Origin: an uncultured Candidatus Bathyarchaeia archaeon
GTDB lineage: Archaea; Thermoproteota; Bathyarchaeia; Bathyarchaeales; Bathyarchaeaceae
Assembly: GCA_964618695.1 (NCBI GenBank)
Contig: CAZUDX010000001.1
Location: forward strand, 268,886 to 332,885
Length of the DNA: 64,000 bases
Direction: 5' to 3'
Shown here piece after piece: positions 62,570-64,000 of this stretch; position 1 is the stretch's first letter, and each line of letters begins with the position of its first letter. Below the pieces are notes generated by a model. That model saw only the letters and a program-made list of their open reading frames with translations, had not been told where the DNA came from and ran no database searches. A program made the translations under genes and the position numbers.

Positions 62570-62648
62570 CAATGTTATTTTGGAATAAACCGGCGACACT
62601 TTATTATTTGCGTTTTCGGAAAAGTTTAGCATCTTGGATTTCGAAGAT

Positions 62649-63061
62649 TTACTCGAAGCCAGCTTCTATAAAAGTTCCTGCATCGTTGAATGGCTTCTGG
62701 ATGCCTTTGAGGGTTTCGAGCACCTTTGCTAGTTGCTTAGGCTGGTTGACTTCCCAATCTTTTTGCGGCGCAAGACGGATGCGCGCCCCGTTCGCACCTC
62801 CGCGCTTGTCGGAGCCACGGAACGTGGACGCAGATGCCCAGGCGGTCGAGACCAGTTCCGAGATTGACAGACCAGAGGCAAGTATCTTTCCCTTGAGAGC
62901 GGCGATTTCTTGCGTGTCTGTCAGTTCGTGGTTAACGACAAGGAGGAATCCTGCCAGATGAGTTCCTCAGTGGGAACCTCGGGGCCTAAGTAGTGCGCTC
63001 GGGGTCCCATGTCGCGGTGCGTCAGCTTGAACCACGCCCTGACAAACGCGTCCGCGAGCTG
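62649..63061 (-). pseudogene. katG: Internal fragment of catalase-peroxidase KatG, frameshifted and truncated at both ends
   Basis: Hand translation gives [38 protein letters not shown]. After a frameshift near 62950 it continues [85 protein letters not shown]. This is classic mid-KatG sequence covering only about 135 of roughly 730 codons. Confidence 0.8.
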
Positions 63062-63062
63062 A

Positions 63063-64000
63063 TTATCCGCCTTTCACGCCTTTGGCGATGCGGTCGCCGA
63101 TTTCCTTATCGATGTTACGCCAGTATTCGAAGGCCCGCTGCAGCACGGGTTCGGACACGCCGTTTTTCAAATGCCCCACCACATTGGACACCAGCCGGTC
63201 GCGCTGCGCATCGTCCATGACCTTGCGCACCAGAGTGCCGGGCTGGCCGAAATCGTCGTCGTCCTTGCGCTTGGTGTAGGCGGCACGGATGAACTCGCCG
63301 CTGGCACTCCAGATGGCCACCTCGGGATACCGCTCAGGGTCGGCCTTGGGGCCGCCCTTTGAGTTGGGCGCATAGACCGGATCGGAGACGTTGTCAATCC
63401 GCATCGCCCCGCCCTTGCTGTAGCTGTGCACTGGTACTTTGGGCCGGTTGACCGGAATCTGCTTGTAGTTGACCCCCAGGCGAGCCCGGTGGGCGTCGGC
63501 GTAGGAAACTAGGCGGGCGAGCAGCATCTTGTCCGGGCTCGGACCGATTCCGGGGACGAGGTTGTTCGGCTCGAATGCAGCCTGCTCAATCTGAGCGTGA
63601 AAATCACTAGGATTGCGGTTCAGCGTCAGCTGGCCCACTTCGTGCACCGGATAGTCTCCGTGGGGCCACACCTTGGTCAGGTCGAAGGGGTTGAATCGGT
63701 AAGTCTCGGCCTCTTTGAAGGGCATAATCTGGACTTTCAGGGTCCAACTGGGGTAATCCCCCCGCTTGATCGCCTCGAACAGATCGCGGCGGTGGTAGTC
63801 GGCATCAACACCGGCAATCCGGTCGGCCTCTTCCTGGGTTAGGAAGTCGATGCCTTGGTTTGTCTTGAAGTGATACTTCACCCAGTAGCGCTCGCCTTTG
63901 GCATTGACCCACATATAGGTGTGGCTCGAGTAGCCGTTCATGTGTCGATAGCTCCTGGGGACTCCACGATCGCTCATCAATATGGTGACCTGATGGGCCG
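63063..64000 (-). CDS. Monofunctional haem catalase (small-subunit type); 5' end outside the window
   Basis: The frame stays open to the window edge (..[28 protein letters not shown]). Motifs include [38 protein letters not shown] and RLGVNY. GC is about 57-68% in two hand-counted lines. Confidence 0.9.

Follow-up and report, generated by a model that had tools for sequence, protein, structure and literature searches.

The final 1.4 kb of the window (the whole 64,000-nucleotide stretch of DNA that we analyzed) most likely belong to an integrated element that has degraded in a Bathyarchaeia chromosome. They would be its tRNA-proximal edge, and the element would have brought in a bacterial-type catalase. 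We propose insertion at the 3' end of a tRNA-Phe gene, probably by a tyrosine integrase whose gene has been lost except for its last ~23 codons. The catalase was probably already scarred when it arrived, with its stop codon fused to the middle of katG (at KatG residue ~394). This fusion would have a single origin, and many low-GC contigs from sediment now carry it. In our model, selection retains the catalase, and lineage-specific deletions trim what is left of katG and of the integrase gene, both of which are dead DNA. By one of these deletions, the tail of the integrase gene would have been brought up against KatG codon ~523; the order in which they occurred belongs to the model. The relevant features of the window are:

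61900 to 62334, minus strand: host gene for a HIT-family hydrolase (Pfam HIT), our anchor for the host lineage and its relatives
62465 to 62569, plus strand: tRNA-Phe(GAA) with a 28-nt intron (Rfam RF00005, 44.2 bits; intron-removal scan)
Probable layout of this tRNA, plus strand: exon 1 at 62465-62495, intron at 62496-62523, exon 2 at 62524-62569, with CCA encoded in exon 2
62570 to 62600, no strand: 31-nt spacer between the stop of the integrase remnant and the 3' end of the tRNA
62601 to 62675, minus strand: putative 3'-terminal remnant of an integrase (tyrosine recombinase) gene (tblastn with two integrase C-termini)
62676 to 63061, minus strand: KatG catalase-peroxidase pseudogene remnant, residues ~394-523 of ~731 (NCBIfam PRK15061; tblastn with the KatG of locus L153)
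63063 to 64000, minus strand: 3' two-thirds of a monofunctional, small-subunit heme catalase, residues ~174-484 of 484 (Pfam PF00199 and PF06628)

The HIT protein is 78% identical to its homolog from Candidatus Bathyarchaeum sp. bin115 (CP070820.1) and 66-78% identical to those from several other Bathyarchaeia genomes. Bathyarchaeia relatives have kept both the HIT gene and this intron-bearing tRNA at 71-81% nucleotide identity, and the tRNA adjoins the HIT gene in the relatives L001-L007, L165, and L166. By default, ARAGORN calls this tRNA as tRNA-Asn, which we ruled out by modelling the intron. When the intron (between standard positions 30 and 31 in the layout above) is taken out, the anticodon stem is perfect (CCCGG/CCGGG) and the anticodon is GAA. 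This is a tRNA-Phe, as a first-pass annotation of the window had proposed. Elsewhere in the window are typical archaeal housekeeping genes, for Trm1, fumarase, NFACT, and an M32 carboxypeptidase. Otherwise, gene order is not kept with the GTDB relatives on either side of the HIT gene and the tRNA. Since these relatives are too distant to share more than these two genes, synteny alone does not define the borders of the island. With these two genes as host markers, the GC-rich tail appears to sit in a Bathyarchaeia chromosome.

Positions 1-62600 of the window are 42.5% GC, and 1.3-kb windows within this region have a standard deviation of 2.9% and a maximum of 52.5%. In contrast, positions 62700-64000 are 59.5% GC, which is 5.9 standard deviations (z = 5.9) above the 1.3-kb windows of the remaining sequence. 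The change is as abrupt as the first-pass annotation had described: in a 100-nt profile, GC content is 37% at 62600-62699 and then jumps to 56-66% at 62700 and beyond. Homology to the insert-free relatives (L001-L007 and L165) stops at 62569-62588, which is the 3' end of the tRNA; the first-pass annotation had placed the junction just 3' of a tRNA gene. The boundary of the island coincides with the 3' end of the tRNA, and the GC-rich foreign block then begins. Both katG and the catalase are missing at the tRNA site in L001-L007 and L165, so the block has both an atypical composition and the absence from relatives that define an island.

The 311 catalase codons in the window (64000-63066) match positions 166-381 of 383 in PF00199 (E = 3e-100), and the Catalase-rel domain (PF06628) is also matched (E = 7e-21). 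The protein is a monofunctional heme catalase of the small-subunit type, with the core and the catalase-related C-terminal domain. Its stop codon (TAA) is at 63063-63065, and the gene runs past the end of the window at 64000. Full-length relatives have 484 amino acids. The window does not reach the N-terminal 173 codons, where the distal His and Asn are encoded, so the frame was read for 311 codons; these contain no stops or frameshifts and are 59.8% GC. The proximal heme-ligand tyrosine of heme catalases lies in the motif R-x-x-x-Y-x-D-x-H, and this motif is found in the translation. Catalase activity is predicted, and presumably the enzyme removes H2O2 in this genome. Metagenomic catalases are 94-98% identical to it at the protein level. 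Across comparisons with relatives of the cassette (the catalase and its katG remnant), dN/dS is 0.04-0.12, and dS ranges from 0.10 (L084) to 0.45 (L081). The window's catalase is kept by purifying selection.

Close relatives of this catalase are spread across many phyla. As labelled by their sources, catalases that are 85-98% identical at the protein level come from Bathyarchaeota, Thorarchaeota, Lokiarchaeota, Desulfobaccales, Desulfococcus, Desulfobacterota, Acidobacteriota, Planctomycetota, Anaerolineae, Parachlamydiales, and others. Across 80 metagenome loci, the GC content of the catalase is 46-65%, whatever the flanks. About 20 metagenome contigs have a GC-rich catalase inside flanks of 35-45% GC, so the GC jump is a recurrent property of this gene in low-GC hosts. 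The GC content of the catalase drops with that of the host, from 59.8% in the window to 46% in L124, which is a trend that amelioration predicts. (The amelioration of transferred DNA is a concept of Lawrence and Ochman.) The hosts of the cassette that could be checked, L085 and L167, are both Bathyarchaeia; in L085, the catalase lies beside a downstream flank that shares its gene order with Candidatus Bathyarchaeum, with proteins that are 76-83% identical. We conclude that the window's catalase is of bacterial type and widely exchanged between phyla. More broadly, KatG and clade-3 catalases have patchy distributions that have been shaped by horizontal gene transfer. A Bathy-6 genome with a catalase-peroxidase has also been reported (PMC11697101). 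Two IMG/VR contigs encode related catalases (88% and 76%). Because both lack the katG scar, we rejected viral carriage of the scarred catalase.

The KatG remnant begins directly past the catalase's stop codon, at 63061. It matches positions 386-515 of 725 in PRK15061 (E = 4e-63) with 214 bits, versus a cutoff of 981 for full-length proteins, and it corresponds to residues 394-523 of the intact 731-amino-acid KatG from locus L153. As a full two-domain KatG (PRK15061 or TIGR00198) has ~725 amino acids, this is a fragment and not a gene. The loss of 1 nt between 62945 and 62944 breaks its frame. KatG homology runs out at 62676-62692, so the distal end is uncertain by ~15 nt. These results agree with the first-pass annotation, which had recognized the 3' end of a monofunctional catalase and, after its stop codon and on the same strand, an internal piece of KatG with a frameshift near 62,950 and a loss of homology near 62,670-62,690.

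At the nucleotide level, the remnant is 81% identical to katG of L129. In a search for its donor, the best matches were short and only 84-85% identical, and the donor was not found. The GC content of the remnant is 58.6% in the window and 51% in L081, as compared to 63-67% for intact genes. We polarized the changes with two intact KatGs, using the sites at which these are the same: the window's remnant has 30 GC-to-AT changes and 7 AT-to-GC changes, and the remnant in L081 has 27 and 2. We also estimated the divergence of the remnant from that of L081, as the differences in a 1178-nt alignment minus the differences in the catalase. This estimate (~28%) is near the catalase's pS (0.34) and far from its pN (0.03). 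The KatG remnant is neutral DNA whose composition is drifting toward that of its host.

Intact katG and catalase genes do occur together. Locus L129 encodes katG and then the catalase, and L153 encodes katG, peroxiredoxin, MBL/rhodanese, the catalase, and a ferritin-like protein, in that order. In these bacterial oxidative-stress clusters, the same two enzyme families are on the same strand, as in the window. However, katG is complete and lies upstream of the catalase, with spacers or other genes between them, whereas in the window, an internal fragment of katG is fused to the catalase's stop codon, downstream of the gene. The first-pass annotation was correct that the window's arrangement is not a normal operon, but the two genes are not strangers to each other. 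The catalase in the intact cluster of L129 is followed by its own terminator-like hairpin, as it is in L090, L091, L093, and L100.

At least five independent public contigs contain the junction between the catalase's stop and KatG. They have diverged from the window to differing degrees, and their KatG remnants are cut at differing points. In class A junctions, the catalase is joined to KatG at residue ~394 (GGCGGATAA followed by TCAGCTCGCGGACGCG); these are common to the window, L081, L082, L086, and L167. The contigs compare to the window as follows:

L081 and L082, from two different JGI samples: 86.5% identity over 1178 nt, KatG remnant to residue ~474
L086, from a metagenome: 94% identity, KatG remnant of ~50 nt, to residue ~410
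L167, a 12.4-kb contig from JGI: 92.5% identity, KatG remnant to residue ~431
L085 and L089, from metagenomes: 96% identity, KatG vestige of 10 nt

L167 also carries the window's 1-nt deletion in KatG, so the frameshift must have been inherited and did not come from a sequencing error. Both the junction and the frameshift were already in place before the split from L167 (dS 0.32), and hence the acquisition is not very recent. The foreign DNA had been described as "very recent," but the junction and the frameshift are older than a split at dS 0.3-0.45. As judged by eye only, L113 and L124 might have strongly AT-decayed versions of class A.

In class B junctions (L084, L088, and L168), the catalase is joined to KatG at residue ~705 (GGCGAGTAG followed by GACTCCCAAGAGAAG), which leaves the last ~27 codons of KatG. 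We considered whether class B was derived from class A by one deletion, and the sequences do not settle the derivation. Across the two classes, about 10 contigs have C-terminal or internal remnants of KatG downstream of the catalase. L088 also has an N-terminal remnant of KatG on the 5' side of the catalase, with a leader of ~90 nt in between, as well as the C-terminal remnant downstream. Since there are KatG remnants on either side, the catalase in L088 sits within a former katG. The leader of L088 is clearly shared with L085 and L094, and more weakly with L113 and L124. We searched the literature for a katG-scarred catalase allele and did not find a description of one. The katG scar on the catalase's stop codon is a convenient molecular tag for tracing one transferred allele across metagenomes and for dating its decay.

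On the side of the tRNA, the most informative sequence is L166, a 1081-nt ENA scaffold from another study, whose HIT protein is 87% identical to the window's. L166 aligns with the window at 89% identity from 61814, through the HIT gene and the tRNA, to 62692, which is the exact point where the window's KatG homology stops. Past that point, L166 has an AT-rich flank of ~150 nt and then the 3' end of katG (DFVAAWNKVMNLDRFDLAQS and a stop codon). So, this related archaeon also has katG-derived DNA beside the same tRNA flank, though it is a different piece. Relative to a state like that of L166, the window is missing KatG codons ~524-731 and the downstream flank of katG. In L165, whose HIT protein is 83% identical, the tRNA is followed by unrelated DNA, so this is an empty site.

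The sequence between the KatG remnant and the spacer is likely to be what is left of an integrase gene. L085 encodes the C-terminal part of a tyrosine recombinase 140 nt after its catalase (Phage_integrase, 5e-9; positions 7077-7757, ending in ELVEAGFEYICTTPQDVMLFRKRK and a stop codon). L171, a viral contig from IMG/VR, encodes a full-length homolog of 438 amino acids that is 41% identical (positions 3089-4405, ending in LLEVGFEYVLQKDNLIFLRKRK and a stop codon), with a tRNA 62 nt further on. Both proteins match Phage_integrase from Pfam and the integrase family from PHROG. For both C-termini, 62601-62675 is the best non-self tblastn match in the window (E = 0.058 for L085 and E = 0.041 for L171), and in each case, the alignment extends right up to the stop. 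The match is short (~23-31 residues): 62675-62607 reads as ~23 codons with one internal stop, followed by a double stop at 62601-62606. L166 has a longer copy of this integrase-like tail in the same place. We think that 62601-62675 is probably the C-terminal remnant of a tyrosine integrase, with the caveat that a match at E of about 0.05 could be due to chance. No integrase had been visible to the first-pass annotation; with matches at E = 0.04-0.06, we see a probable trace of one at 62601-62675.

The joint between KatG codon 523 and the integrase tail is found in the window's assembly only, with no duplicate in any other assembly. The spacer at 62570-62600 is kept in L166, and the empty site of L165 does not share it beyond 62580. 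The core of the attachment site, if there is one, should lie in or beside 62570-62600. Within the window (to 64000), we found no second copy of the 3' end of the tRNA-Phe and no att repeat, which matches the earlier impression that no att-like repeat was visible; the far end of the putative element would lie beyond 64000. We also asked if adjacency to a tRNA is a general rule for the cassette: none of 20 loci with the cassette had a tRNA nearby. As the other contigs with the cassette have no tRNA beside the catalase, integration at tRNAs is not a general property of the cassette.

Besides an integrated element, we considered three other explanations for the GC-rich block. The contig could be an assembly chimera, either of Bathyarchaeia DNA with GC-rich bacterial DNA or of three unrelated pieces. 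The composition does change abruptly, and this conserved catalase does break assemblies (L084, L089, and L167 start at window position 63980/63981). However, at least five independent contigs contain the catalase/KatG junction, each with its own divergence and truncation; the frameshift in KatG is shared with L167; and the KatG remnant has decayed toward AT, as expected in this host. Also, the same catalase is found in L085 beside a flank that is syntenic with Candidatus Bathyarchaeum (76-83% protein identity), and L166 independently ties the same tRNA flank to katG DNA. Given the katG beside the tRNA flank in L166 and the empty site in L165, a chimera is very unlikely, and the mis-assembly that the first-pass annotation had offered as one explanation is not what the independent assemblies show. 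We give even less credence to the idea that the block is old native DNA, without any transfer, whose composition is upheld by strong constraint on the protein. The catalase is very conserved, and its GC content stays at 46-63% in hosts of every composition. But the non-coding KatG pseudogene is GC-rich as well (58.6%), the gene is missing from the closest genomes, and near-identical catalase proteins are scattered patchily across bacterial and archaeal phyla. The fall in the catalase's GC content with that of the host (from 59.8% to 46% in L124) is what amelioration would produce.

The remaining explanation does without an integrative element: a resident katG beside the tRNA would have been mostly replaced by the catalase, via recombination within katG, and the integrase-like tail would be due to chance. 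This would account for the catalase between the N-terminal and C-terminal remnants of KatG in L088, and for the 3' end of katG that lies beside the tRNA in L166, together with a downstream flank of its own. Also, katG does occur in some Bathyarchaeia (PMC11697101), katG has ~81% nucleotide identity across phyla, which is enough for a target of recombination, and the E-values for the integrase are marginal. On the other hand, the relatives L001-L007 and L165 have neither katG nor the catalase at the tRNA site, and in its GC-richness, the KatG remnant resembles the catalase and not the host. Furthermore, the integrase-like tail extends precisely to a stop codon that is 31 nt from the tRNA, and in L085, the same catalase is followed by a clear fragment of an integrase. 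Overall, we consider this replacement to be unlikely. A related idea, which we find doubtful, is that the katG::catalase allele spreads between phyla by using conserved katG flanks as homology arms and displacing katG. If so, katG::catalase would be a self-targeting gene-replacement cassette that does not depend on integrases alone.

The preferred explanation, an integrated element that has decayed, fits with what is known about islands that are targeted to tRNAs by tyrosine recombinases. As in those islands, the window has DNA of foreign composition within ~30-100 nt of the 3' end of a tRNA, a probable remnant of an integrase-family reading frame that ends beside the tRNA, and an adaptive cargo gene; and as in islands of this kind, the site is empty in a related genome (L165). 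Unlike those islands, the element in the window is heavily deleted, with probably ~23 codons of the integrase left and no att repeat or far boundary seen up to 64000, and other copies of the catalase cassette are not beside tRNAs. In archaeal elements of the pNOB8 type, the integrase gene stays whole after integration. The window also resembles other cases of transferred catalases and catalase-peroxidases in archaea, in that an anaerobic archaeon has a bacterial-type enzyme for detoxifying H2O2, with near-identical copies across phyla. The difference is that the window's catalase drags along a fixed katG scar, which marks the lineage of one allele. Amelioration is matched both by the shift of the KatG remnant towards AT (30:7) and by the tracking of host GC by the catalase's GC; the window's copy is among the least ameliorated. 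The first-pass annotation's other explanation, a decaying bacterial fragment that was acquired horizontally, is supported by the catalases that are 85-98% identical across phyla, by the AT-drifting and frameshifted KatG, and by the adjoining tRNA and probable integrase remnant. We view the window's tail as a typical tRNA-associated island with an adaptive transferred gene, for which the comparative evidence of authenticity and decay is unusually good.

If this is correct, then a strictly anaerobic archaeon from sediment obtained its defense against peroxide as the cargo of an integrated element, from a pool of catalase genes that is shared by sulfate reducers, Asgard archaea, and others. In a metagenome-assembled genome, a GC-rich island at a tRNA is easily flagged as contamination or as a chimera; here, independent assemblies show that it is genuine. 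The contigs L084, L089, and L167 all begin at one position in the catalase (window 63980/63981). The conserved catalase causes recurrent breaks in contigs, which calls for caution inside the gene itself.

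The intact bacterial oxidative-stress cluster at L153:231-6826 encodes KatG, a peroxiredoxin, an MBL-fold/rhodanese protein, a catalase, and a ferritin-like protein. A cluster of this type is a plausible source locus for DNA that contains both katG and catalase. On the metagenome contig L088, a catalase-in-katG cassette (L088:2254-3728) adjoins genes for a SOUL heme-binding protein and a heliorhodopsin; the surroundings of heliorhodopsin genes are reported to be enriched in catalase and other redox genes (preprint 10.1101/2021.02.01.429150). At L085:3036-4834, on a Bathyarchaeia contig, genes for Cas1 and a DUF6602 protein lie immediately 5' of the catalase, and an integrase fragment lies downstream of it. 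The L085 catalase may be part of a larger mobile or defence-rich region.

Three independent catalase-bearing contigs, from different samples, share a start within the catalase: L084:1, L089:1, and L167:1 all correspond to window 63980/63981. Also, the protein clusters contain many partial catalase gene calls of 305 amino acids. Together, the repeated start and the partial calls suggest that assemblies break recurrently at this site, probably because the stretch upstream is common to several community members. Another catalase-bearing contig, L168 (ENA ERZ27294422, k141_303073), begins with 56 nt (L168:1-56) that resemble a Nextera adapter plus index from Illumina (...TCGTCGGCAGCGTCAGATGTGTATAAGAGACAG), joined to catalase sequence. 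If the adapter identity holds, then the 5' end of L168 is an untrimmed-adapter artefact in the deposited assembly.

A contig listed in IMG/VR (L169) encodes a catalase that is 88% identical to the window's (L169:10001-10930) and that does not have the katG scar, the KatG fragment fused to the catalase stop. This catalase gene is 52% GC, versus 37-44% GC for its flanks. In catalase cluster 2, the representative (P0002) shares 98% identity with the window catalase, and another member is labelled as being from a Pirellulales bacterium (P0366; MBN2294508.1, from a 15.7-kb contig). The Pirellulales label means that the gene was transferred once more or that the metagenome-assembled genome was binned incorrectly.

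An intron interrupts the tRNA-Phe(GAA) gene at window 62465-62569 (+), apparently within the anticodon stem (between standard positions 30 and 31); for an archaeal tRNA intron, this position is non-canonical. ARAGORN names this tRNA Asn(att) in its default mode and Leu(caa) with the -i option; in the default mode, its orthologs are named Thr, Pro, or undetermined.

Immediately 3' of the HIT gene, window 61772-61870 (-) contains sequence that resembles the T-arm and acceptor of a tRNA (GGGCCCGGCCGGATTTGAACCGGCGG...). Neither ARAGORN nor Rfam, at its gathering score, calls a tRNA in this interval. At the same relative position, three Bathyarchaeia relatives (L001, L165, and L166) have tRNA matches from Rfam, and the tRNA-Val of a fourth (L006) corresponds to window 61812-61867. 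The window's sequence is probably a tRNA with an intron or one that is otherwise atypical.

Two other reading frames in the window are as follows:

53068-56739, minus strand: 1223-aa open reading frame, flanked on one side by a molybdopterin oxidoreductase gene and on the other by further host genes
21894-24869: encodes a 991-aa protein that carries CARDB and InlB B-repeat domains

The 1223-aa open reading frame has no match in Pfam at E <= 0.001. The stretch that ranks second in GC content across the window, reaching 52.5% in 1.3-kb windows, overlaps the gene for the 991-aa protein.
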